The notes below the pieces were generated by a model. It ran no database searches. It worked only from the letters and a program-made list of their open reading frames with translations, and had not been told where the DNA came from. From a virus, in IMG/VR virus record IMGVR_UViG_3300049491_000383, positions 72,080-136,079 of that record: 64,000 nucleotides of DNA; one strand, 5' to 3'. Both the position numbers and the translations under genes were made by a program. Positions 8,974 through 62,268 of the stretch are shown piece after piece (within the stretch, counting starts at the first letter, position 1; every line of letters starts with the position of its first letter).

Positions 8974-9063
8974 TGGAGGAAGCAGTGAGATTCGAACTCA
9001 CGGACCCGATTAAGAGTCGCTAGTTTTCAAGACTAGAGCCATCAGCCGCTCGGCCATACTTCC
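8974..9063 (-). tRNA. tRNA-Ser(TGA)
   Basis: Type II cloverleaf, loop CT-TGA-AA. Confidence 0.92.
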
Positions 9064-9068
9064 ATTTT

Positions 9069-9167
9069 TGGTAGGAGAACTTGGAATCGAACCAAGGACG
9101 TGCCCCTATCTGGGGCCACGGAGTGCCGGTGTATAAGGCCGGTGTTTTACCACTAAACTATTCTCCC
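9069..9167 (-). tRNA. tRNA-Ile(TAT) with long variable arm
   Basis: Loop CT-TAT-AC, ~28-nt variable region with GCCC/GGGC hairpin, ACCA end. Confidence 0.8.
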
Positions 9168-12433: not shown

Positions 12434-13255
12434 TCAATTAATTGAGCAAACTGCGCTCTTGGCCTTGTTAGCGCTCTTGGTCCGCGAGGGCCAAATTGTA
12501 TCTGCAAATTTCGCCTGTTTTGGCATAGGAAACACAAGCTTAGAGTCCTTTTGTACCTGTGCCAAGCTCGTCACAAATTGGTTCAACGAACCTTTTCCAG
12601 TTTCGTGCTTAAATTCAAACACAATAACTTCGTTGGTTTCAAGATCGACCAAAATCTTGTAGAATCCGTTTGGAACAGTTACCATGCTAGTACCGATTGT
12701 CTTATCTTGAGCTCTATTATAGACTGGGCCAGCATAGATTAGAATCCTGTGATCGCGATTAACTGCCCACGCGCGTGTCTGGGCTTCAAGCTTACTCCAA
12801 ATTCCGCGATTGAATGCTGGCAACTGTGGAGTCATGTTTGAAAGGATAAAACTTTCACGAGCTACTTCTGGATCCCAACTCATGTCTGCCGAGTTAGCAA
12901 TGTGACCCATATCATATCCGGATTTACTGTAATCCTTAACTTCTGCACGTTTATCTGCTGGAAGTGATCGATCAGATTTGAATGCACTTAGGCGCTTTTC
13001 GCAACCGGTTGCATTTGCTGGAGTAAGGACATAGGCAACCCACTGTGGGATCTTTGCCTTGTTATCGTGCTCAAGGAAATACGCTTTTCTGCAAATTAGG
13101 GTTGTATCCTGTTTTGCACCTGTTGGTTGACCAAACGGAACCTGTGCAGCACATTGCTTCACATCCAATGGATCTGACTGTGATTGTGCATTGGCTGTTG
13201 AAGCGAACGCAACTAGAATGGTAAGGAGTATATTTTTGATCATAAAAAAGCCCAT
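12434..13255 (-). CDS. DNA/RNA non-specific endonuclease (NucA/EndA family), secreted
   Basis: Signal peptide, SGYDMGH, SNMTPQ...FNRGIW..LE. Confidence 0.9.
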   Translation of the reverse strand: MGFFMIKNILLTILVAFASTANAQSQSDPLDVKQCAAQVPFGQPTGAKQDTTLICRKAYFLEHDNKAKIPQWVAYVLTPANATGCEKRLSAFKSDRSLPADKRAEVKDYSKSGYDMGHIANSADMSWDPEVARESFILSNMTPQLPAFNRGIWSKLEAQTRAWAVNRDHRILIYAGPVYNRAQDKTIGTSMVTVPNGFYKILVDLETNEVIVFEFKHETGKGSLNQFVTSLAQVQKDSKLVFPMPKQAKFADTIWPSRTKSANKAKSAVCSIN

Positions 13256-14095: not shown

Positions 14096-15529
14096 TTAGA
14101 AGTCGTAACGCTGGACCATGACGGTCTTCAGCATGATGCTGATCGGTGTCATTTCTTCACCACCTAGCACTGACTTAACAATGCTTGGAGAGAAGCCAGA
14201 CACAAGAGCTGCACCAGCCTTGTTATAGGTCACCGGGCTGTTACCGGCGCGGCCGTTCAAGTTCCAGAATACAACCTGCGGTACCTTGTACCCTGCAGCC
14301 TGATATTCCTTCTCGATGAACTCCATCGCCGATACGCTAACCGGGCCGCCGCCTGTCGAGTAACGACCGCTCTTACCAGTACCACCCGAAGTGATGCACT
14401 GGTCGAATTCCATGTCCGACAAGATCAAGACCTTTGTCGGCATTTCCTTCTGCGGAACCTTACCCTTGATTGCGGCAGACAAGATTAACTTGAATACTGC
14501 ACCCAGGTCGGTGTTCATTCCCCAATCCGAACGTTCCATCTGGTTGAAACGCTGTTCCAAAGTACCAGACAACTTTACCATCTGTGGCGAACCAGAGAAA
14601 GTAACGAACTGATCCTTGAACACACCACCCATACGCTCGGAAGTGTACAGGCCAAGTGATACAGCTACGTCCAGCGCAGTTACGCTACCGGATACGGCCA
14701 CACCGCTCATCGAGCCCGAAACGTCAACAACCGGTAGGATGTTTTCGTCAGAACCTTCCAAGTAGTTAGGCAATGCCTTCCACTGTGCGTTTGCAACAGC
14801 CTTGTCACCGTTACGAAGCGAACGGATCACATCGTAAGGGTACGCAACCGAAGCGTTGATCTTGGCTTCACCAGATTCCAACTTCTCCTTGTACTTTGCG
14901 TAACCGGCCGGGTCGTGCTTCAAGAATGCCTTCTGGTAACGACCAGCAGCAACTGAAGGAACGTGTGGGTACACGATTCCAGTCCAGTCCTGAGCGCACA
15001 TCTTCTGTTCAACAGTGTTGGACAGACCGACCAAAAGCTTACGGTAAGCCTTAGGAGTCAACTTCATGTACGAACGGATCTTGTTGGCTTGTTCGCCCTG
15101 ACGCGGCATCCACTTCGCGCACAGACCGTCTTGCACGTCGTTCAACGCGAAAGCAATCATGCGCAGAGCATCACGCTCCAGCACAGTACCAAAAGTCATC
15201 AAGACGTCGTCCCAACGACCAAGTTCGGGAACCTTCACCAACAGGCGTTCTGCAAGCTTCGGCTCGGAACGGATTACGTAACCGAACAGCTTACGGAAAG
15301 TTTCACGCTCACCCGCACCACCACGTGCGTCACGAGCCCATTCAAGGACACGGATCGCAACTTCGGAGTCTTCCACCAAAGCACCTGCGAAAGTGCTTGT
15401 GATGTCCTTACCACGGCTTGCACCGGCCAAGAAGAAGAGGTCCACGTTCTTGTTCAAAGACGAGGAGTTTGTAACTGCGCCGTTGGAAGTTACTGCGGAT
15501 GCGTTTACGGCTTCAAATAGTGTTGTCAT
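14096..15529 (-). CDS. DUF2828-type Ro60/TROVE-like protein with C-terminal vWA domain
   Basis: T.NGA...SS...VDLFF, RD.RGG.GER, GRWDD, AKWMPR, MIDAS DVSGSM, TDL..VF, SDMEFD, VFWNL, VSGFS. Confidence 0.85.
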   Translation of the reverse strand: MTTLFEAVNASAVTSNGAVTNSSSLNKNVDLFFLAGASRGKDITSTFAGALVEDSEVAIRVLEWARDARGGAGERETFRKLFGYVIRSEPKLAERLLVKVPELGRWDDVLMTFGTVLERDALRMIAFALNDVQDGLCAKWMPRQGEQANKIRSYMKLTPKAYRKLLVGLSNTVEQKMCAQDWTGIVYPHVPSVAAGRYQKAFLKHDPAGYAKYKEKLESGEAKINASVAYPYDVIRSLRNGDKAVANAQWKALPNYLEGSDENILPVVDVSGSMSGVAVSGSVTALDVAVSLGLYTSERMGGVFKDQFVTFSGSPQMVKLSGTLEQRFNQMERSDWGMNTDLGAVFKLILSAAIKGKVPQKEMPTKVLILSDMEFDQCITSGGTGKSGRYSTGGGPVSVSAMEFIEKEYQAAGYKVPQVVFWNLNGRAGNSPVTYNKAGAALVSGFSPSIVKSVLGGEEMTPISIMLKTVMVQRYDF

Positions 15530-15546
15530 TTTGTTTTTCCTTTATC

Positions 15547-15666
15547 AGAATCAGTTTTACTTTGCCTGCTGCTCTACCAACTGAGCTACCTCACTATTTC
15601 TAGTGAAGGCGGGACTCGAACCCACGACCGTCTGGTTATATTAAGTTTTGTTGCGGAATTGATTCT
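15547..15666 (-). ncRNA. YrlA-like circularly permuted tRNA mimic closed by the CMGCAA helix (family member A)
   Basis: AGAATCA-ATTCCGCAAC...T-arm GTGGG-TTCGAGT-CCCGC, acceptor stem closed by GAAA, D-arm GCTC-AGTTGGTA-GAGC...TGATTCT. Confidence 0.8.
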
Positions 15667-15724
15667 TTATTATAGAGAGGTATTCGATACAACTCAGTGT
15701 TCGGATACATCCATAAATAAAATC

Positions 15725-15823
15725 AGATTAGCTTTTGGCGAGTTTTTGCTTTCCCCTCCGGAAAGGTTCTTTGACCCGAAGGCCAAATAGTTCATGGTTT
15801 TATTTTGTTGCTGTAACTAATCT
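15725..15823 (-). ncRNA. CAGCAA-helix RNA with two internal hairpins (member B)
   Basis: AGATTAG-TTACAGCAAC...TTTGGCC-TTCG-GGTCAAA, CTTTCC/GGAAAG...CTAATCT. Confidence 0.7.
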
Positions 15824-15845
15824 TTAGTGTTTGCAAGTGTCTACT

Positions 15846-16226
15846 TTATACTTCTTCCACAATCTCGTCAATGAATTCAGTTACGTATCCGGGGTTTGGG
15901 CAACTTACAGCCGGGTCAACAAGAATTGTTGCTCCAATTGTAATCTCTTCATCGTCGGAATCAACCAACTCATAAGAGATATAGTAACCACCGGTGCCTG
16001 TAAACGAATGCCATTCATCGGGGAGTTCAACCTTGAGTTGCTTCTCTTTGATGATTACCTTAGCATTATTCATTGCACCCCTTCGAATCATCTCCTGAAT
16101 GCTTTTCATTACATCAAAAACATTCTGGGGTTCCGAAGGCCATTTAGTAACGCTCGTATTCTTCTCCCAAATAAAGGCTGCGGCCTCGTGTAAGGCTGCG
16201 AGAGGATACGATACATTAACAATCAT
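15846..16226 (-). CDS. hypothetical protein embedded between family RNAs
   Basis: 126-aa ORF. Confidence 0.55.
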   Translation of the reverse strand: MIVNVSYPLAALHEAAAFIWEKNTSVTKWPSEPQNVFDVMKSIQEMIRRGAMNNAKVIIKEKQLKVELPDEWHSFTGTGGYYISYELVDSDDEEITIGATILVDPAVSCPNPGYVTEFIDEIVEEV

Positions 16227-16251
16227 TGTGCTTCTTTCTAAAGTAGAAAAC

Positions 16252-16511
16252 AGAGTGATGTCAGGGACAAACTTTTCATCCGGAGATTACTAACTTTGCT
16301 AAGAGAGCCTAACCCCTCGTTCGAACCTTTTACATCGTCCTAGGATGTTTGCTGTACGTAACATCTGGTTTCAACGCCATGCTTCTTGAGGCTATAGCTC
16401 CACCAGAATTACTAATGCACACCTTCAACGGGTTGCCCCTCCACTATGCATCTTTTAACCAGCGCCATGATACGGATTTTACGCCGTGAATTGGTTTGCT
16501 GTATTCACTCT
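16252..16511 (-). ncRNA. large CAGCAA-helix RNA with two nested motif copies (member C)
   Basis: Outer AGAGTGA-ATACAGCAAA...TCACTCT; inner GATGTTA-CGTACAGCAAA...TGACATC. Confidence 0.65.
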
Positions 16512-16529
16512 TTGTATATAACAAGTCTT

Positions 16530-16559
16530 ATTATATAGTGTGTTTACTTATCCCGTCAA
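16530..16559 (-). promoter_or_regulatory. sigma70-type promoter for the RNA/DUF2828 operon
   Basis: TTGACG-18 nt-TATAAT. Confidence 0.6.
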
Positions 16560-16597
16560 CCTAAAACCGTTGCGATAATAGGTCAAAAATGACGGTT

Positions 16598-17344
16598 TTA
16601 TTTTTGCGATTGGACGTGTTGTAACTCTTTGTCAATGAAATCTGCACCACGCTTCAAAAGCCGCTTATAATCCGGAGAATTATTTTTATCTCGGAACATG
16701 CCTGCTACGTCATGTACTTCTAATTCATACTTGAGCATTTTGTGTGCCTTGTTTCGTGCCTCAATCTGTGGCAGGGCTGCAAGACGTTTGATCTTTGGTA
16801 CAAGAGAATTTAGGACTTGGACAAATCTAGCATTTATTTCTGCAGGCTGCGCCAGATACTTCATATCTGGAGCATAAGGATCGTTCTTCGACTTTCTATA
16901 TTCTTTATCTTTAGGAGTTGAATATCGCTTACTTGCTGCTACTCTGTATTCAGATTTAACATCGTCCAACATGTGTCTAAGTTCATGAGCTATCGTAGAC
17001 TTCATGAAATCCGATGATAGATAATCAGAGTTAAATATCATTGATTTAGTATTTGCATCCCAGAGGCCGCCAGGTGCATCTTTAGTGCCCGGATTTTCTT
17101 TTCTGACACGATCCAATAATGCAGAGTCGGACATGATGACAATCTTTATGTCATCTATTCCCTCAAATGGTGTGTCGAGGATTTGCCCAATCTTCCCTAC
17201 ATACAATGTTTCAGTATTTTCGTCGTCCCAATCTAAATCCTGATCTGCATATTTTTGCAGGAAAGAATAAAGCGGGTCAGCTAGGGAGATTAGTGCCCTA
17301 TCTTCTTCTGTAGTTTCAACTAGGAATAATTCTTGCAGTCTCAT
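16598..17344 (-). CDS. zincin-like metallopeptidase-motif protein
   Basis: HELRH motif and Y...P.EINAR. Confidence 0.55.
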   Translation of the reverse strand: MRLQELFLVETTEEDRALISLADPLYSFLQKYADQDLDWDDENTETLYVGKIGQILDTPFEGIDDIKIVIMSDSALLDRVRKENPGTKDAPGGLWDANTKSMIFNSDYLSSDFMKSTIAHELRHMLDDVKSEYRVAASKRYSTPKDKEYRKSKNDPYAPDMKYLAQPAEINARFVQVLNSLVPKIKRLAALPQIEARNKAHKMLKYELEVHDVAGMFRDKNNSPDYKRLLKRGADFIDKELQHVQSQK

Positions 17345-17375
17345 AGCGTATCCTTGATACGCTATTTATCACAAA

Positions 17376-17762
17376 TCAGGTAACAGCAACACCACGAAGA
17401 ATGTCAAACTCGTTTGGACGAAGTTTGAGTTCAATCATGATATCGCGGCGCTCTTCGTCTGTCTTTTTGATCCAGGCAGTCATAGACTTTTCATCACCAC
17501 GCATATAGGATGGCATATTGCCATCAATCCATTTAGCAAGGTCCTTGAAACTCCTACCGCTCCATGAACTATCAGCTCGTAGTATGGCTGTCTGAAAGTT
17601 ATTCTTCAGCACTGCTTCCAGAAAGCTCCCTGGTGGCAATCCATAAGCCATGTAGTTCCACAATCCTTCCCGAATAGCATCTGGAACAGAATCAAAATAG
17701 GCAAATGTTGCCGTAAATTGCGGATGGATTGATCTGTAGTCCATAAGTGGCCTATATTCCAT
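17376..17762 (-). CDS. hypothetical protein
   Basis: 128-aa ORF (Y...G.PPGSFL.AVL.N). Confidence 0.55.
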   Translation of the reverse strand: MEYRPLMDYRSIHPQFTATFAYFDSVPDAIREGLWNYMAYGLPPGSFLEAVLKNNFQTAILRADSSWSGRSFKDLAKWIDGNMPSYMRGDEKSMTAWIKKTDEERRDIMIELKLRPNEFDILRGVAVT

Positions 17763-17939
17763 TAATGGATCTTGAATCCAGTAAGGTTAAGCAACCAGCC
17801 AAGAACGTAGAGCAGGGCCAACAATGGCCACGCAATTCCGAGCAGTAACGAGTCCTGTTTGGAGACAGAACTCTCGCGTGTGCGGTAAGCAACGATTCCA
17901 CCAATCAGAAAATAAATCAACAGTGCAGTTAAAATCATA

Positions 17940-19025
17940 TCAATCCTCTTCCTTTAATAGGAATTTGTTGCTGATGGTTTTGAAACTAAAACCACCATCC
18001 ATTCTCTTGTAAACAAGACCTTCACGAATCGCATGCTTGATGCTAGGACCTTCTGCAAATGCAAGCAACTTATCCACATCAAACAACCCGAATTCATACA
18101 ATGGAACATCCATATGCAGAACAGGGACATGATGTACCATCTCGCGATTTACACCTCGTGCCCAAAGCTCATCCAAAATCAGATGACGTTCTCTCGGAGG
18201 TACATAACCACCTGTGGTAATATTGAAGATGTCAAACACAAACAATTTATGCGAAGCAAATGCCTCACGATTCTTCTGTATACCCGGGCCCATGAGCTCA
18301 GCTTGTACAGCAAAATCTCTGTCAAAAGAGCGCATAATATCGTGTAGCCCGCTGTCTACAAACATGCGTACCAAACTATTGTGCTCGTTTTTAGGATCAT
18401 CCAACTTCAGTTCCCAATTACGACCGCAAACACCCGGAACACCATCCTTTACAAATGCAGTAAAGGAAGTACCATCGAACTTCATGCTGATTTCGTAACG
18501 TGCATCCGCGTTATCAACAAAGATATCGCGCTTCATGTTTTGGCAACGTTCCTGATCAGTCTTTCGAATGAATGCAGGGAAGTTACCCTTCACTTGACCA
18601 GCAAGTTCTGTAGGAATGGCAGCTTCATACTTCTGGATATCCAACAAGTCAGATACGTCGGTGCCGACCATAAAGAACTCTGAAAGTTCCTGTCCTTCAT
18701 CTTCGTCGGAATCAATAAAGTCGTTGAAGAACAAATTCACAGGTAATGCAAGGCCCTGGCTGAGCTGACCACGCAACTTAATAGTCTTGATACGGAAACC
18801 CTCACGCTCTCCCATTCTCTTGGAGGAGTTTCTGCGCAAGATTTCGAATTCGGGACGGACAGGCAAATGGCTGTCGATTTCAAAGTAGACACACAAATCG
18901 CCCACATTGAATTCAGACTTCTTTACCACGCATTGCCAGCCATCAATTTTTGCCAGCTGAACTAAGTCCGCACCTTCGATAGGTAGCAGATCATCAATCC
19001 TACGTATTGTTGCAAGCTTTCTCAT
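17940..19025 (-). CDS. ATP-dependent RNA ligase, DRB0094/Rnl5 family
   Basis: N-terminal OB fold (I.GAD..., YFEIDS, KLRGQLSQGL), KTDQER, motif I KFDG, EGLVYK, SFK.IS. Confidence 0.9.
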   Translation of the reverse strand: MRKLATIRRIDDLLPIEGADLVQLAKIDGWQCVVKKSEFNVGDLCVYFEIDSHLPVRPEFEILRRNSSKRMGEREGFRIKTIKLRGQLSQGLALPVNLFFNDFIDSDEDEGQELSEFFMVGTDVSDLLDIQKYEAAIPTELAGQVKGNFPAFIRKTDQERCQNMKRDIFVDNADARYEISMKFDGTSFTAFVKDGVPGVCGRNWELKLDDPKNEHNSLVRMFVDSGLHDIMRSFDRDFAVQAELMGPGIQKNREAFASHKLFVFDIFNITTGGYVPPRERHLILDELWARGVNREMVHHVPVLHMDVPLYEFGLFDVDKLLAFAEGPSIKHAIREGLVYKRMDGGFSFKTISNKFLLKEED

Positions 19026-30898: not shown

Positions 30899-30951
30899 AG
30901 AATGCTTATTTTCAAATTACAAGTTTGATTTTTAGTTGCTGAACGCATTCT
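30899..30951 (-). ncRNA. CAGCAA-helix RNA with Thr(UGU) anticodon stem-loop mimic (member D)
   Basis: AGAATGC-GTTCAGCAAC...TCAAA-CTTGTAA-TTTGA...GCATTCT. Confidence 0.75.
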
Positions 30952-34902: not shown

Positions 34903-34978
34903 TGGCGCGTTGTCGGGGGATCGAACCCCGTCACCTTCAGATTTAGAATCCGCCGCTCTCCCACTGAGCTAACAACGC
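34903..34978 (-). tRNA. amber suppressor tRNA (anticodon CTA)
   Basis: Full cloverleaf, anticodon arm GCGGA-TT-CTA-AA-TCTGA, G73, CCA. Confidence 0.85.
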
Positions 34979-37222: not shown

Positions 37223-37610
37223 GGTATTTTGGTTTACAAGGTATAACCTACCCCGGAGTCTAGTGTTTCTTAGGCAGCTAGGAGCATCATGTCGCTATCA
37301 GCCAAGGCTGAAAGGTCAAGAGCTGTCTCAGTTGTAATTGCGTTTGCTTTTACGGTTTGTGCTTGATTTACGGTCATCGCCTACCGTGTTGTCCACTCTC
37401 GTACTCTTTACCCCGTCGAATACCTGGTCCGCCCCATTATTAAACATACCGTGAAAAATTCGAATTCTCTTTCCTGCCCATACAACAGGTGACCGTCTTT
37501 AAGCTGGAGTCGAACCAGCAATAACCCATTCGATATGTTTAATGGTGGAGCGGGCGGGAATCGAACCCGCGTCCGGAACACTTTTCTGTTCGCTTCATAC
37601 AACAATAACT
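37222..37610 (-). ncRNA. ssrA: circularly permuted (two-piece) tmRNA
   Basis: The T-arm and ...CGCTCCACCA end (37543) lie upstream of the 5' end GGGGCGGACCAGGTATTCGAC (37435). G3:U70 is present. The tag ORF at 37347-37270 reads ANAITTETALDLSALADSDMMLLAA*. Confidence 0.9.
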
Positions 37611-51713: not shown

Positions 51714-51801
51714 AGTTTTCCTTATATAGTCAGAGTGCGCTTTCTTTTCAAGATAATGGTTTGAAATTGTTTTAGGTTTGCGGTAAACACTCTTTAGAAA
51801 G

Positions 51802-52984: not shown

Positions 52985-53135
52985 AAATTTTAAATCCTTG
53001 TAGGGAGTCGAACCCTGAGAGTATCAGTCTCTAGACCTTAGCCGTGTACCTACTAGATTTCGGGTTGCCTTTCTCTGATACATACTCGGCATGCGGTCCT
53101 ACTTCTCGTTCGGCGATCTAACAAGGACAAGTCTA

Positions 53136-53378: not shown

Positions 53379-53500
53379 ATCTTTCCTTTATTATTGAATT
53401 CACAGCGCCAGGAATCGAACCTAGAGTACCAATATGAACGGAATCGAACCGTCTCTTCGGGCTGCGCGCGGTTCCCGGGCACCAAGCCTCACTGTGAAAC

Positions 53501-54980: not shown

Positions 54981-55036
54981 AGGATACCTTTTTGCTTTTT
55001 TACAGAAAAGTTGATTTGGGTTGCGGAATGTATCCT
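54981..55036 (-). ncRNA. CCGCAA-helix RNA with Tyr(GUA)-like loop (member F)
   Basis: AGGATAC-ATTCCGCAAC...CTTTT-CTGTAAA-AAAG...GTATCCT. Confidence 0.7.
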
Positions 55037-57751: not shown

Positions 57752-58020
57752 ATAAATTTTGGTGGACCTAAAGGTGTATAGGATAGTGACTTCTATGGGC
57801 CCATTGACTTGGTGGATAGTGCAGGAATCGAACCTAGCGAGCGCCCGTCGGCTTTCACAGTACCATACTAAATGGGAATCGAACCCAAATACTCTCCATT
57901 TACTACCCATAACTGACGGAATCTACGGGATTCGAACCCGCCACTCCCTATGTTGGAAGCTACTCCAAGACTTGTTCAGCATAGTGCGCCTAGGGCCGAA
58001 CTTATCACAGATCTCATAAC

Positions 58021-58182: not shown

Positions 58183-58302
58183 ATTGTAAGGCACCCGCCG
58201 GAGGGAATCTAACCCTCGATATATCCCAGCATCTAGGGACCTTGTTCATTTACAGCCGGAAGAGTTTGCTCCGGGCAATGACGACAGCATTGAAAACTAT
58301 TA

Positions 58303-58375
58303 GGGGTGACTAACGGGGTTCAAACCCGTACAAAGATCTTCACAGGATCTGATGCTTTCATTACATCATAGTCAC
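58303..58375 (-). tRNA. tRNA-His(GTG), no encoded CCA
   Basis: Loop CT-GTG-AA, C73. Confidence 0.7.
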
Positions 58376-58396
58376 ACCTAATAGCTCTTAGGTGTT

Positions 58397-58470
58397 TGGG
58401 GTGTCTTGGGGAATCGAACCCTCGCCTGCTGATTCACAGTCAGCTTTGCTACCACTACACTAAAGGCACC
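58397..58470 (-). tRNA. tRNA-His(GTG)
   Basis: G-1:C73, loop CT-GTG-AA. Confidence 0.88.
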
Positions 58471-58482
58471 ATTGAATAAAAC

Positions 58483-58598
58483 AGGTTCGCATTATACGTG
58501 CTACCACTACACTAAAGCGACGACCAACCTCGCTCCCAGGACTCGAACCTGGCCCTTCCATTTTCAAGATGAATAATTTTTGTTGCTGAAACGAACCT
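58483..58598 (-). ncRNA. circularly permuted tRNA(UGA) closed by the CAGCAA helix (member G)
   Basis: AGGTTCG-TTTCAGCAAC, TTCAT-CTTGAAA-ATGGA, T-arm CCAGG/CCTGG, looped acceptor GAGCGA/TCGCTT, D-arm, CGAACCT. Confidence 0.8.
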
Positions 58599-58615
58599 AA
58601 CGGTCGAAATAAATC

Positions 58616-58717
58616 AGGATGTTTGGCTTTGGACCAGGAGTCGAACCCTATTGCCATGCCCCCTCTGGGCTGGTCCGCTGAGTTTTGGTAGCGATTTTAG
58701 ATTGCTGAAACCATCCT
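58616..58717 (-). ncRNA. CAGCAA-helix RNA with T-loop domain (member H)
   Basis: AGGATG-GTTTCAGCAAT...GG-TTCGACT-CC...CATCCT. Confidence 0.7.
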
Positions 58718-58724
58718 TTAAACT

Positions 58725-58800
58725 TGGTACCCCAGAGGAGATTCGAACTCCCACACTTAGTTTCTAAGACTAATACGACTGCCAATTACGTCACCGGGGC
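58725..58800 (-). tRNA. tRNA-Leu(TAG) with short variable loop
   Basis: Loop CT-TAG-AA, variable loop GTGT. Confidence 0.85.
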
Positions 58801-58807
58801 ATATATA

Positions 58808-58884
58808 TGGTGCGGTAGGTGGGACTCGAACCCACAAGATTTAGTTTCTAAGACTAACACGTATACCAATTCCGTCACAACCGC
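58808..58884 (-). tRNA. tRNA-Leu(TAG) with short variable loop
   Basis: Loop CT-TAG-AA, variable loop ATCT. Confidence 0.87.
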
Positions 58885-58976
58885 ATAAAATTTTCGGAGT
58901 AGTGGCAGGGCATCCCCACTTGGAATCCCACATAATCCTGTTGGTCTGTTGTGTGGCCACACATCATTCCACGTCC

Positions 58977-59054
58977 TGGCTCCAGGAACTGGAATCGAAC
59001 CAGTCTAATCTTGGTTAACAGCCAAGCGGTTGACACCATGTCGCCTCTCCCGGA
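58977..59054 (-). tRNA. tRNA-Asn(GTT)
   Basis: Loop CT-GTT-AA, G73. Confidence 0.82.
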
Positions 59055-59441: not shown

Positions 59442-59442
59442 A

Positions 59443-59832
59443 TTATCTTATTACAAATTCATCATACTTCAAACTTTTTCCAAATGTGATACTATGTTTT
59501 ACCAGTATCTTATTTTTTGGAACTAATGCTTTTAGCTCTGTCTGGATATGATACAAAAATATCATATCCCAGTCTTGCATTGATGCATCCTTACATGTAG
59601 TGTTGGTACCATTGTTACCACCCTTTACATTTATTTCAAATCTTTCAGCGCCGGCATCAAATTGGCTACTTGTCTTTACTTGTACCTTAAATAATTTACT
59701 ATCTTTAGATACAACCAGATCCCAATCTTCGCTATCAGTTAACGGTATACATACGCCATAACCAGCTTTGGTAAAATATGCAATTGCCTGGCCGAGACCA
59801 GCGTTACCTTGCTTTAAACTATTTTGGAACAT
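59443..59832 (-). CDS. PD-(D/E)XK homing-endonuclease-like protein
   Basis: G..G...AI.YF...GY.V..P..D...WDLVV...KVQVKT. Confidence 0.8.
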   Translation of the reverse strand: MFQNSLKQGNAGLGQAIAYFTKAGYGVCIPLTDSEDWDLVVSKDSKLFKVQVKTSSQFDAGAERFEINVKGGNNGTNTTCKDASMQDWDMIFLYHIQTELKALVPKNKILVKHSITFGKSLKYDEFVIR

Positions 59833-61799: not shown

Positions 61800-61813
61800 G
61801 TAACTAAGAAACT

Positions 61814-61904
61814 TGGCGGGCGCGTCACGGAGTCGAACCGGACTTTAGCGTATTTGGAGAACGCCTCATCAGACCATAAGCCTAATATAAAGCCTTAGTC
61901 GCCC
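61814..61904 (-). tRNA. tRNA-Trp(CCA)-like with expanded D region
   Basis: GCGT-T-CTCCAAA-T-ACGC, T-loop TTCGACT, G73 CCA; long D-region hairpin. Confidence 0.55.
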
Positions 61905-61909
61905 ATAAC

Positions 61910-61984
61910 TGGCATCCTGTACGAGAATCGAACTCGCCTGAATAGGTTGAAAGCCTACGGACCTCACCAGAAGTCAAACAGGAT
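61910..61984 (-). tRNA. tRNA-Glu(TTC)
   Basis: Loop CT-TTC-AA, G73. Confidence 0.82.
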
Positions 61985-62268
61985 ATAAATTTTGAAGTTG
62001 TTATCCAAACACACGAGGAGAATCGAACTCCCACACACGCCTTGCTGACGCCGCACTGCCATTATGCTACATGCTCATTTCTAAAGACCTACGTCAACAG
62101 TTACAGAAGAAACGTGGATACAACTATTAAAGTCAGTTGACGCTGACTATAATTCTTTGAATGCTATTTGCAGGGGAGTCGAACACGCCACCTTAATGTA
62201 TCTAGATTGGTAAACACACTAATGTACCGACCAGAGATCCAATCACCTCTATGCACGGTTGCAAAATC

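Follow-up and report, generated by a model that had tools for sequence, protein, structure and literature searches.

A complete, acceptor-capped and circularly permuted tRNA fold in the tRNA array of a huge phage may be a Y-RNA-like tRNA mimic

The 64,000-nt stretch of viral DNA analysed here, referred to as the window (positions 72,080 to 136,079 of IMG/VR record IMGVR_UViG_3300049491_000383), comes from a huge freshwater phage and carries a tRNA array in which one RNA gene, G, presents the arms of a tRNA in permuted order. A preliminary description of the sequence had interpreted G as a complete, circularly permuted tRNA(UGA) that was opened between the D and anticodon arms and stood in tandem with a related RNA, H. 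The locus raises the question of whether G is a tRNA gene that matures into a chargeable tRNA or a stable RNA with the shape of a tRNA. On the minus strand, G reads 5' to 3' as a closing strand, the motif TTTCAGCAA, a 9-nt linker, the anticodon arm, a 4-nt variable loop, the T arm, the acceptor 3' strand, a cap, the acceptor 5' strand, U8 and A9, the D arm, nucleotide 26, a 7-nt linker and the second closing strand. Its parts are listed below, with pairing and paired changes counted over 11 orthologues.

58483..58598, minus strand: G, the entire permuted tRNA-like RNA, spanning 116 nt with both strands of the closing helix included; a CM built from orthologues scores it at 128 bits
58592..58598, minus strand: 5' strand of the closing helix of the G handle, AGGTTCG, forming seven Watson-Crick pairs with 58483-58489, two of the seven changed on both sides
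58583..58591, minus strand: unpaired conserved motif TTTCAGCAA (family consensus N-T-N-C-M-G-C-A-A), without a complementary partner
58557..58573, minus strand: anticodon-like arm TTCAT/CTTGAAA/ATGGA, 5 bp, with the triplet TGA at 58564-58566; three of five pairs changed on both sides
58536..58552, minus strand: T arm CCAGG TTCGAGT CCTGG; 100% of cells paired
58515..58535, minus strand: capped acceptor without CCA (3' strand and G73, 58528-58535; loop TTGGT, 58523-58527; C(-1) and 5' strand, 58515-58522); six of seven pairs changed on both sides
58497..58514, minus strand: U8, A9, D arm (GTGT AGTGGTA GCAC, itself 58512-58498) and nucleotide 26
58483..58496, minus strand: 3' linker TATAATG (7 nt) and 3' strand of the closing helix, CGAACCT

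In its linear order G is invisible to standard tools: ARAGORN found no tRNA in 58471-58724, and Rfam, including the tRNA family RF00005, returned no match there at E<=10. When G was rotated at 26/27 and trimmed in 180 ways, 150 of the variants yielded an ARAGORN call of a tRNA(tga) of 73 nt. This call is weak by itself, as 813 of 2970 control chimeras (27%) joining unrelated 5' and 3' tRNA parts from the window were also called, and 174 of them (5.9%) reached at least six of the seven acceptor pairs. Real support comes from comparison. Across eight orthologues aligned with MAFFT, 96.0% of cells were paired and 14 of 28 pairs had changed on both sides, a result matched by none of 500 shuffles (slid controls, 37-52%); with 11 orthologues the figures were 97.1%, 14 of 28 and none of 500, with slid controls at 35-52%. 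In these 11 sequences, which derive from related huge phages, compensatory changes maintain all five helices, the outer closing helix among them. The nucleotides that support tRNA tertiary structure (U8, A14, G18G19, A21 and U33) are kept in all 11, A37 is kept, position 73 is G in 10, and the 15:48 Levitt pair is canonical in 10 and covaries, being A:U in eight and G:C in two. The complete, permuted tRNA fold opened between the D and anticodon arms, which the preliminary description had proposed for G, is supported.

Thermodynamic folding did not single out G or H (Z of -1.39 for G, +0.61 for H and -0.93 for the G core), and the minimum free energy structure lacked the anticodon and T arms; this approach was left out of the evidence. 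A promoter and terminator scan of 58200-59000 gave counts at shuffle level. An exact 22-mer of G had no match in the viral contig collection, a strict pattern of the cap and D arm matched viral contigs in one relative only (G002), and blastn against GenBank phages matched only the flanking tRNA-Leu genes, leaving G and H uncovered. The stretch is present without differences in DNA contigs of two sequencing runs, and no RNA run was listed as carrying the locus. In a short contig of one relative, the part holding G and H is replaced by 281 other letters.

The ends of G do not join in the way first suggested. A helix formed by CAGCAA had been proposed, but its partner TTGCTG is absent and CAGCAA is unpaired; the ends pair instead through AGGTTCG and CGAACCT. 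Inspection by eye for bases in the cap loop, in the 3' linker or in the loops of H that might pair with CAGCAA gave nothing consistent across orthologues. The 7-bp helix of both RNA ends, the adjacent unpaired UUUCAGCAA and A/U-rich linkers together make up what we call the handle, which leaves the cloverleaf between nucleotides 26 and 27. The acceptor is closed by a loop as described, although not one of 9 nt: the cap is the 5-nt loop TTGGT, closed by C(-1):G73 beside a G1*G72 mismatch. Since this short loop seals the acceptor end, G cannot accept an amino acid as transcribed, which agrees with the preliminary description. We considered whether TTGGT might act as an anti-CCA by pairing with ACCA and dropped the idea, as one independent orthologue has TTAGT and the invariance of TTGGT in seven sequences was a product of the search pattern used.

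The label tRNA(UGA) carries little meaning, since the 11 orthologues display seven to eight triplets (TGA, TCA, GTA, CGT, ATG, TGT, CAA) on one conserved body. A swap of triplets while the acceptor architecture and position 73 stay constant is a poor fit to cognate charging. G also lacks an encoded CCA, which ends 52 of the 55 ARAGORN tRNAs of the window. Canonical tRNAs with matching anticodons exist (Ser tga in the window, Tyr gta in G002), and we therefore rejected the idea that the anticodon of G fills a gap in the tRNA set. Bacterial tRNA-Ser has a long extra arm, and neither Ser nor Tyr identity agrees with a variable loop of 4 nt; the tRNA-Ser genes of the window are 89-90 nt long. Taken from sequence comparison, these features suggest that G is probably not a decoder.

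H, which follows in tandem, belongs to the same family as proposed, as it shares the TTTCAGCAA motif, a closing helix and a T loop.

58616..58717, minus strand: H, second handle RNA, in tandem with G, with orthologues in L038 and G002
58599..58615, minus strand: U-rich conserved spacer GATTTATTTCGACCGTT between H and G

The closing helix of H is 6 bp long (AGGATG/CATCCT); H also has TTTCAGCAA, a hairpin whose loop has 10 nt, and the T loop (58637-58648), in whose stem a small hairpin is inserted. It is kept in three phages, which is thin support. We infer that G and H are Y-RNA-like paralogues.

The handle is not confined to these two RNAs. An initial family pattern gave seven loci, six of which were chance matches in coding DNA, and was discarded. 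The pattern AGRNNNNNTNCMGCAA has 11 matches in the window, all on the minus strand, against 0.53 expected, and none of 100 shuffles reached 11. The closing strand is perfect downstream of nine matches, lies upstream as a capped arm in one and is absent from one. By sequence, the helix and motif of the handle mark at least ten RNAs of the window, which besides G and H include the following.

15547..15666, minus strand: X2, handle RNA with a T arm, a GAAA-capped acceptor-like stem and a D arm, directly upstream of a Ro60-like gene
15725..15823, minus strand: X1, handle RNA, 99 nt, with an orthologue in G002
16252..16511, minus strand: X0, handle RNA with a 260-nt structured cargo, with an orthologue in G002
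30899..30951, minus strand: mini handle RNA whose cargo is an anticodon-like hairpin only, loop CTTGTAA
50445..50501, minus strand: mini handle RNA, loop CTTTTAA
51732..51793, minus strand: mini handle RNA, hairpin with the 9-nt loop ACCATTATC
54981..55036, minus strand: mini handle RNA, loop CTGTAAA
61456..61572, minus strand: normal-order tRNA(TAC) with an encoded CCA; the handle is inserted between nucleotides 26 and 27 and forms a capped extra arm about 42 nt long

The orthologue of this last tRNA in G002 (L036) was called by ARAGORN only once its 46-nt insert had been removed. In sister classes found in relatives, the acceptor is sealed by GNRA tetraloops. The anticodon loop of G is the same as that of the tRNA-Ser(tga) of the window, and together the loop of G and those of all three minis with a 7-nt loop are identical to the anticodon loops of four tRNAs of the window, Ser(UGA), Thr(UGU), Lys(UUU) and Tyr(GUA). 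As the displayed loops copy particular tRNAs and differ between close relatives, they point to tRNA-specific partners in phage-host conflict, for example anticodon nucleases or repair enzymes. Lys(UUU) and Tyr(GUA) tRNAs are known targets of anticodon nucleases.

Three of the ten handle RNAs in the window, X0, X1 and X2, lie directly upstream of one protein gene and on its strand, a connection that the preliminary description had missed.

14096..15529, minus strand: Ro60-like protein gene (Pfam DUF2828 and DUF7788); AF2 model with a pLDDT of 71

The best 12 Foldseek matches of this model in the PDB are all Ro60/TROVE structures (E of 5e-8 to 4e-4, TM of 0.3-0.39), and a PDB search with the protein sequence returned nothing below E 0.35, so that the link to Ro60 comes from the fold match. 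At the moderate confidence of the model, the predicted protein has a Ro60 fold. Of the 37 viral loci examined that encode a relative of the protein, at 41-87% identity, 26 have same-strand handle RNAs within 3 kb upstream, and two more have them only just downstream. Furthermore, among 19 phage records with the RNA ligase, a strand-biased excess of handles was found only in the three that encode the Ro60-like protein; the other 16, including two complete genomes, were at control level. The synteny could partly reflect density, since handle RNAs are dense in the tRNA region (about ten per 64 kb), and the co-occurrence of handle RNAs and protein is confounded with phylogeny. We consider the handle a putative binding site of the Ro60-like protein.

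YrlA RNAs (RF02553) mimic tRNA, have a closed acceptor stem and are bound by Ro60, next to which they are encoded in both bacterial and phage genomes (Chen et al. 2014, PMC4201824; Wang et al. 2018, bioRxiv 10.1101/312249). YrlA resembles G in its paired ends, in a short conserved motif on the 5' strand, in the module order of T arm, closed acceptor-like stem-loop and D arm, and in its retained tertiary nucleotides and lack of a free CCA. It resembles the handle family as a whole in having several paralogues per genome, some with a T arm only (YrlB; here H), and in having relatives beside a Ro60 homologue and near an RNA ligase. X2 comes closest, with 35.8 bits (E 3e-6) against the Rfam YrlA model, over model positions 27-81 only and below the gathering score of 69. 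G itself has no RF02553 match at E<=10 in 58471-58724 (gathering score 69 bits). Published YrlA RNAs are without an anticodon loop, whereas G has a complete anticodon arm with a 7-nt loop in which U33 and A37 are kept; the stem of G leaves the cloverleaf at 26/27 rather than taking the place of the anticodon arm; and G carries UNCMGCAA, not the Ro60-contact motif GNCGAA(N)G, so that the architecture is alike and the sequence is not. G is located in a tRNA array about 43 kb from the Ro60-like gene, although on the same strand, which is outside the roughly 4 kb YrlA criterion that X0, X1 and X2 satisfy, and the presumed partner is filed in Pfam under DUF2828/DUF7788, not TROVE.

The best structural match of the window's protein is the Ro60 of Thermus phage phiLo (PMC12135203; PDB 9KOP, 9L5Y), which binds two Y-like RNAs encoded upstream of its gene. 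Like the handle RNAs, Yrl1 and Yrl2 of phiLo are built on a terminal stem beside a bulge, and the bulge contains a short motif that is conserved. The portions of that report used here describe no tRNA-like module in them, unlike in G; phiLo has two such RNAs, where the window has ten or more.

Drawing these lines together, we consider it somewhat probable, from sequence evidence, that G belongs with the YrlA-like Y RNAs as a stable non-coding RNA and is not a decoding tRNA. G would probably be transcribed with the tRNA array and excised near the closing helix. It would then fold into a tRNA-like L with an elbow made by the T and D loops, an exposed anticodon-like loop and a sealed acceptor end, while its ends would pair in the 7-bp helix that, with UUUCAGCAA and the A/U-rich linkers, makes up the handle leaving the cloverleaf at 26/27. 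A common handle closes at least nine other small RNAs of the window, including the three directly upstream of the Ro60-fold protein gene. On this reading, a phage Ro60 RNP may have a number of interchangeable "effector modules" shaped like tRNAs, G among them. G could present a mimic of a particular tRNA, through the anticodon loop of tRNA-Ser UGA, to host or phage tRNA-binding factors as a decoy or tether, with anticodon nucleases, repair enzymes and exonucleases as candidate partners. Expression, RNA ends, Ro60 binding and the decoy or tether role of G are all inferred here. Besides the differences from YrlA, the density of handle RNAs and the moderate confidence of the protein model given above, the following speaks against this reading: G is far from the Ro60-like gene, which only three of the ten handle RNAs adjoin, and the CCA-bearing tRNA with the same handle is left unexplained by a pure uncharged mimic.

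In another account, which we find unlikely, the handle is unrelated to Ro60. It would be a general processing or stability cassette of this phage group, with paired ends and a nuclease or chaperone site and serving in places as a 5'-UTR stabiliser, and G would be a free tRNA decoy aimed, for example, at host anticodon nucleases or tRNA-modifying enzymes. Seven of the ten handle RNAs lie away from the Ro60-like gene. Three minis, X2 and the L007 element end 10-25 nt ahead of a ribosome-binding site and start codon, and the position of several minis right before such sites suggests a UTR or processing role for the handle. TAAAG is conserved upstream of most members, with a U-rich tail downstream, and the copied loops would suit a decoy. 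This account has to contend with the conserved synteny and co-occurrence with the Ro60-like gene, with the resemblance of X2 to YrlA, and with a stem-plus-bulge-motif design that is that of published Y RNAs (PMC12135203).

We judge it improbable that G is a genuine permuted tRNA gene whose product can be matured and charged. In the permuted tRNA genes of Cyanidioschyzon merolae, green algae and Thermofilum pendens (Soma 2014 review, PMC3978253), the 3' part of the tRNA is encoded ahead of the 5' part, the acceptor is closed by a short intervening sequence, the leader pairs with the trailer and CCA is not encoded, all as in G, where the 3' part of a complete cloverleaf precedes the 5' part with an intervening sequence at the acceptor. 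According to the same source, a bulge-helix-bulge (BHB) motif is then cut by the splicing endonuclease and a circular intermediate yields the charged tRNA. The preliminary description had offered ligation and re-cleavage of this kind as an alternative, but the defining parts are absent. Inspection of the aligned orthologues revealed no BHB at the junction of G, where no 4-bp helix with 3-nt bulges is seen; instead, an internal loop of 18 nt/7 nt lies beside the 7-bp helix, and orthologues have A/U-rich unpaired linkers of 17-21 nt on the 5' side (the 9-nt motif counted) and 6-9 nt on the 3' side. The tRNA-splicing endonuclease (PF01974) was found in none of five phage genomes, four of them complete, with a positive control in four archaea. 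In a further difference from those genes, the flanks of G are conserved across paralogues with different cargo and the triplet is not conserved among orthologues. As for the enzymes attributed to the phage, Rfam identified no RNase P RNA in the window, while an RNA ligase gene is indeed present.

17940..19025, minus strand: RNA ligase gene (PF21189 and PF09414), in the same minus-strand cluster as the Ro60-like gene

Two routes to a chargeable product can nevertheless be drawn. RNase P could cut in the cap, followed by 3' trimming and CCA addition, to give a two-piece tRNA held together by acceptor, elbow and closing helix; or the phage RNA ligase could join the ends before the cap is opened. 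A complete cloverleaf with a 7-8-bp acceptor, U33 and A37 would suit either route, as would the ligase gene and the CCA-bearing, normal-order tRNA with the same handle at 26/27. The YrlA of M. smegmatis, with a 7-bp acceptor-like stem, is RNase P-cleaved and CCA-added in vivo (PMC4201824). The window also holds a permuted two-piece tmRNA gene (RF04321; 37270-37604 by Rfam), which like G is a permuted gene for a tRNA-like domain and whose two-piece product needs comparable processing; unlike G, tmRNA is cut in two pieces, has a CCA end, is charged and has a tag reading frame, none of which is found in the sequence of G. Set against maturation, besides the missing BHB and endonuclease, are the CCA that G lacks and nearly all tRNAs of the phage encode, the variable triplet on a constant acceptor architecture and position 73, the 4-nt variable loop, the canonical tRNAs for the same anticodons and the tetraloop-sealed acceptors of the sister classes. 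That G in particular has its cap opened by RNase P and is trimmed and CCA-added into a two-piece chargeable tRNA tethered to the Ro60-like protein by the handle, or is rejoined by the ligase, appears from the sequence to be quite doubtful. Were it true, this would be the first case of a bacterial virus whose permuted tRNA genes produce a functional acceptor end, and the phages would be swapping the anticodon of these genes freely.

Finally, that G has no function and is a scar, in which deletions in a fast-changing array left the 3' part of one tRNA gene beside the 5' part of the next, might be read from the 19 nt that its D-arm side has in common with the neighbouring tRNA-His, from the 27% of random half-tRNA chimeras that ARAGORN accepts and from other odd tRNA-like pieces in the array, but it appears close to refuted and is very improbable, given an arrangement that 11 distinct sequences from phages keep, every helix, the outer closing one included, showing compensatory changes, a handle common to other RNAs, and many paired substitutions that argue against the orthologues being recent copies of one another.

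We return to the reading of G as a Y-RNA-like mimic. Y RNAs are already known as tRNA mimics; on this reading G mimics a complete tRNA, has a capped acceptor and is carried on a handle that is presumed to bind Ro60. The literature searched on permuted tRNA, Y RNA and tRNA mimics in phages or bacteria and on DUF2828, supplements aside, reported no such RNAs in huge-phage tRNA arrays, where tRNA finders miss the whole gene class. This phage group presents a natural series on one handle, from an anticodon hairpin alone, a T arm alone and YrlA-like RNAs without an anticodon loop to complete tRNA mimics opened at different points and true tRNAs that encode CCA and have the handle added as a further arm. 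Should the handle bind the Ro60-like protein, this system would allow the function of the tRNA-like module to be approached directly by experiment.

The tRNA region of this IMG/VR virus (source record 136 kb, CheckV completeness 35%, of which the window is a part) is enormous and lies on the minus strand throughout. In the window, ARAGORN called 55 tRNAs and a tmRNA, and Rfam at the gathering score reported 47 tRNAs and the permuted tmRNA. The interval 58483-58717 falls in a 254-nt gap between tRNA-Leu(tag) on one side and tRNA-His(gtg) on the other, and this gap gave no ARAGORN call and no Rfam call, the latter even at E ≤ 10. Two RNAs lie there in tandem, G and H, each formed by a handle (a closing helix, an adjoining unpaired CAGCAA-type motif and linkers) around a cargo, which is whatever the handle encloses. 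The parts of G (58598-58483, minus strand), 5' to 3', are:

Part 1 (-): closing strand AGGTTCG, then TTTCAGCAA
Part 2 (-): A-rich linker, 9 nt
Part 3 (-): 5-bp stem with 7-nt loop CTTGAAA
Part 4 (-): 4-nt variable loop, then canonical T arm
Part 5 (-): acceptor 3' strand, loop TTGGT, acceptor 5' strand
Part 6 (-): U8 and A9, canonical D arm, nt 26
Part 7 (-): 7-nt linker, then CGAACCT

The preliminary description had joined the ends of G by a CAGCAA helix; as TTGCTG is absent, CAGCAA is partnerless, and the ends pair through the neighbouring AGGTTCG and CGAACCT. The acceptor loop, put there at 9 nt, has 5 nt; C(-1):G73 closes it, with a G1·G72 mismatch alongside. The tandem placement of H and its T-loop domain were confirmed. 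After rotation of G by script at 26/27 (reordering between tRNA nt 26 and nt 27, where its cloverleaf is opened), 150 of 180 trimming variants gave an ARAGORN call of a 73-nt tRNA(tga). This test is weak alone, since ARAGORN also accepts 813 of 2970 chimeras that combine unrelated tRNA halves of the window. At least six of seven acceptor pairs form in 174 of the 2970.

Other elements of the array were also recorded. A permuted, two-piece tmRNA gene (37270-37604 (-); Rfam RF04321, 115 bits) has a tag peptide that ARAGORN reads as ANAITTETALDLSALADSDMMLLAA. The tRNA with anticodon CTA at 34903-34978 (-), labelled 'Pyl' by ARAGORN and found also in the related complete phage G002, is a possible amber suppressor. 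A 96-nt tRNA at 9072-9167 (-), detected by Rfam (58 bits) and missed by ARAGORN, has a long extra arm and CTTATAC (TAT) as its anticodon loop; ARAGORN does call a 93-nt tRNA-Ile(tat) in the related contig L014. Uncalled T-arm motifs occur in further gaps (-) at about 53396-53500, 52990-53135, 57752-58020, 58183-58302, 59442-59600 and 61800-62007, including one element with two T arms within a 9-bp closing helix and one gap with three T arms, in which there is a ~115-nt tRNA-like sequence ending in CCA; the handle motif is absent from these elements. After G come two tRNA-His(gtg) genes (58303-58375 and 58398-58470 (-)), the first of which does not encode CCA, and the second of which has an acceptor C:A mismatch and 19 nt of its 5' part in common with the D-arm side of G. 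A short DNA contig of the run labelled X1 (398 nt, depth 5.7) agrees with the window at 58478-58517 and at 58740-58801 but has 281 different letters between these two stretches; it represents a co-occurring relative whose G/H segment differs.

The handle is reusable, comprising the closing helix, the motif N-T-N-C-M-G-C-A-A and A-rich linkers. The pattern AGRNNNNNTNCMGCAA has 11 matches in the window, all on the minus strand (0.53 expected; 0/100 shuffles reach 11). Their complementary strand is perfect downstream in nine and lies upstream in one, a capped arm; the one match without it is probably due to chance. The handle RNAs and their cargos are:

G, 58598-58483 (-): full permuted tRNA
H, 58717-58616 (-): hairpin and T loop, with an inserted hairpin in the T-loop stem; kept in 3 phages, 5/21 predicted pairs compensated
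Four minis (handle RNAs with a single hairpin): one hairpin each, with a 7-nt anticodon-like loop in three
X0, 16252-16511 (-): handle RNA of 260 nt
X1, 15725-15823 (-): handle RNA of 99 nt
X2, 15547-15666 (-): T arm, GAAA-capped acceptor-like stem, D arm

G and these three minis share the sequences of their 7-nt loops with tRNA-Ser(UGA), Thr(UGU), Lys(UUU) and Tyr(GUA) of the window. Where the window has H, relatives carry a mini (loci L039, L043) or another permuted tRNA (L046). The latter (L046:679-812 (-)) consists of T arm, capped acceptor, D arm and anticodon arm (CAA), is opened in the variable region, and is called by ARAGORN once rotated. A second class of complete permuted mimics (L097, L099, L100, L101; records G023, G021, G030, G043) has the closing helix AGTATAG/CTATACT, the anticodon-like triplet CAT in 4/4, and acceptors with covarying stems sealed by GNRA tetraloops (GAAA, GAAA, GTAA, GCAA). 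Three handle RNAs (30899-30951, 51732-51793 and 15547-15666 (-)) end 10-25 nt ahead of the next ORF's ribosome-binding site and start codon, a position from which the handle could act in a 5'-UTR.

ORF 14096-15529 (-) encodes a Ro60-like protein (Pfam DUF2828 and DUF7788), and X0, X1 and X2 are its immediate upstream neighbours. The AlphaFold model of the protein, built on a 26-sequence alignment, has helical repeats in one half and vWA in the other (pLDDT 71), and the best 12 Foldseek PDB matches are all Ro60/TROVE (E 5e-8 to 4e-4, TM 0.30-0.39), headed by Ro60 of Thermus phage phiLo. The tRNA-like core of X2 scored 35.8 bits (E 3e-6) against Rfam YrlA, whose gathering score, 69, it does not reach. 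On the minus strand the order is RNA ligase (17940-19025), three small ORFs, X0, X1, X2 and the Ro60-like gene, a layout (14096-19025) like an RNA-repair operon that recalls rsr-yrlBA-rtcBA (PMC7790460, excerpt); farther down lie a small ORF, tRNA-Gly and a DNA/RNA non-specific endonuclease (12434-13255). Of 37 viral loci that encode a relative of the Ro60-like protein (41-87% identity), 26 have same-strand handle RNAs at most 3 kb upstream and 2 have them only just downstream, while 9 showed none. A strand-biased handle excess marks 3/19 RNA-ligase phage records, exactly those with a Ro60-like gene, the other 16 (2 complete genomes) being at control level; this synteny and co-occurrence are confounded by local handle-RNA density and by phylogeny.

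tRNA-mimicking Y RNAs are already known, phages included. In excerpts of the published work, YrlA RNAs are bound by Ro60 and mimic tRNAs, their acceptor stem being closed, 'resembling circularly permuted tRNAs' (bioRxiv 10.1101/312249), and they adjoin Ro60 in bacteria and in 22 phages (PMC4201824); the Ro60 of phiLo engages PNPase of the host and binds two Y-like RNAs, both encoded upstream of the Ro60 gene (PMC12135203); and a TROVE protein is present in a subset of jumbo phages (PMC7824862). The YrlA RNAs excerpted in bioRxiv 10.1101/312249 are without an anticodon loop, whereas G shows one. This published work supplies the model. G and H are most likely Y-RNA-like paralogues, with the handle as a putative protein-binding module and the cargo as effector module. 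Against this count the 43 kb between G and the Ro60-like gene, a handle motif unlike the published GNCGAA(N)G, the lack of a match of G to the Rfam YrlA model, the only moderate confidence of the protein model, and the handle on CCA-bearing tRNAs, which this reading leaves unexplained. The handle might instead be a cassette for processing or stability that has no connection with Ro60, and G a free decoy, which we consider unlikely.

One handle-bearing tRNA is of normal order (61572-61456 (-), anticodon TAC), with the usual leader, A73 and an encoded CCA; its handle forms a capped extra arm between nt 26 and 27 (42-46 nt including the G002 counterpart). That syntenic counterpart, L036 (about 170.2-170.3 kb), is called tRNA-Ile(gat) by ARAGORN only once its 46-nt insert is removed, and the two arms are similar whereas the tRNA bodies are dissimilar. 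The arm may be an intron, a tolerated arm or the mark of a Ro60-tethered tRNA.

A pattern from the flanks common to G and H gave 7 matches and 1 true relative, a normal-order tRNA-like sequence without CCA inside the same helix plus motif. The window's RNA ligase led to the 385-kb G002 (ligase 63% identical), with syntenic orthologues of H and G and tRNA-His next, as in the window. A looser pattern run on a metagenome collection gave 14 loci (12 true; 7 distinct, including G002 itself), and a covariance model from the found sequences, requiring no exact word, added 3 orthologues in other Ro60-bearing viral records. MAFFT alignments were scored against the permuted cloverleaf:

8 orthologues: 96.0% of cells paired; 14/28 pairs changed on both sides; shuffles 0/500; slid controls 37-52%
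11 orthologues: 97.1% of cells paired; 14/28 pairs changed on both sides; shuffles 0/500; slid controls 35-52%

Compensatory changes occur in every helix of G, the outer closing helix included. U8, A14, G18G19, A21 and U33 are invariant (11/11), and the 15:48 Levitt pair covaries and is canonical in 10/11, the exception being the window's G (G15/G48). TTCAGCAA, the T-loop word and GTTGGTC were fixed by the metagenome pattern, so their invariance there is by construction; in five independently found sequences the cap is TTGGT in four and TTAGT in one. On this comparative sequence evidence, G is a selected, structured RNA with the complete tRNA fold in permuted order originally proposed.

That G matures into a chargeable tRNA is improbable. 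In M. smegmatis, RNase P cuts YrlA, whose acceptor-like stem has 7 bp, and CCA is added to the RNA (PMC4201824, excerpt); in addition, the window holds both an RNA ligase gene and a permuted tmRNA gene; nevertheless, CCA is encoded by 52/55 window tRNAs and not by G. The triplet at 34-36 varies among orthologues (TGA, TCA, GTA, CGT, ATG, TGT, CAA; one with a shifted hairpin), while the T arm, cap architecture and position 73 (G in 10/11) hardly vary. No single tRNA body can follow the identity rules for Ser, Tyr, Thr and His together, and a 4-nt variable loop is unfit for a Ser or Tyr tRNA. Canonical tRNAs with the same anticodons exist (Ser tga, 8974-9063, in the window; Tyr gta in G002), and in related classes of complete permuted mimics from sister phages a GNRA tetraloop or a different short loop closes off the acceptor. 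The algal and archaeal permuted-tRNA pathway requires a bulge-helix-bulge motif and a splicing endonuclease (PMC3978253, excerpt), whereas the junction of G is an asymmetric A/U-rich internal loop beside a 7-bp helix, and PF01974 is absent from 5/5 phage genomes examined (4 complete; archaeal controls positive).

Since the helices are kept by compensatory changes across orthologues, the view of G as a scar, a non-functional leftover, is untenable and deserves almost no credence.

Supplements aside, we found no literature report of a dispersed family of at least 10 handle RNAs in huge-phage tRNA arrays, of a complete permuted tRNA mimic whose stem departs at 26/27, of an anticodon changing among orthologues of such RNAs, or of true tRNAs bearing the handle. 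If G and H are Y-RNA-like, the handle would bind protein and the cargo would act as effector, and G, a capped tRNA mimic with an anticodon loop on display as well, would be the fullest form.
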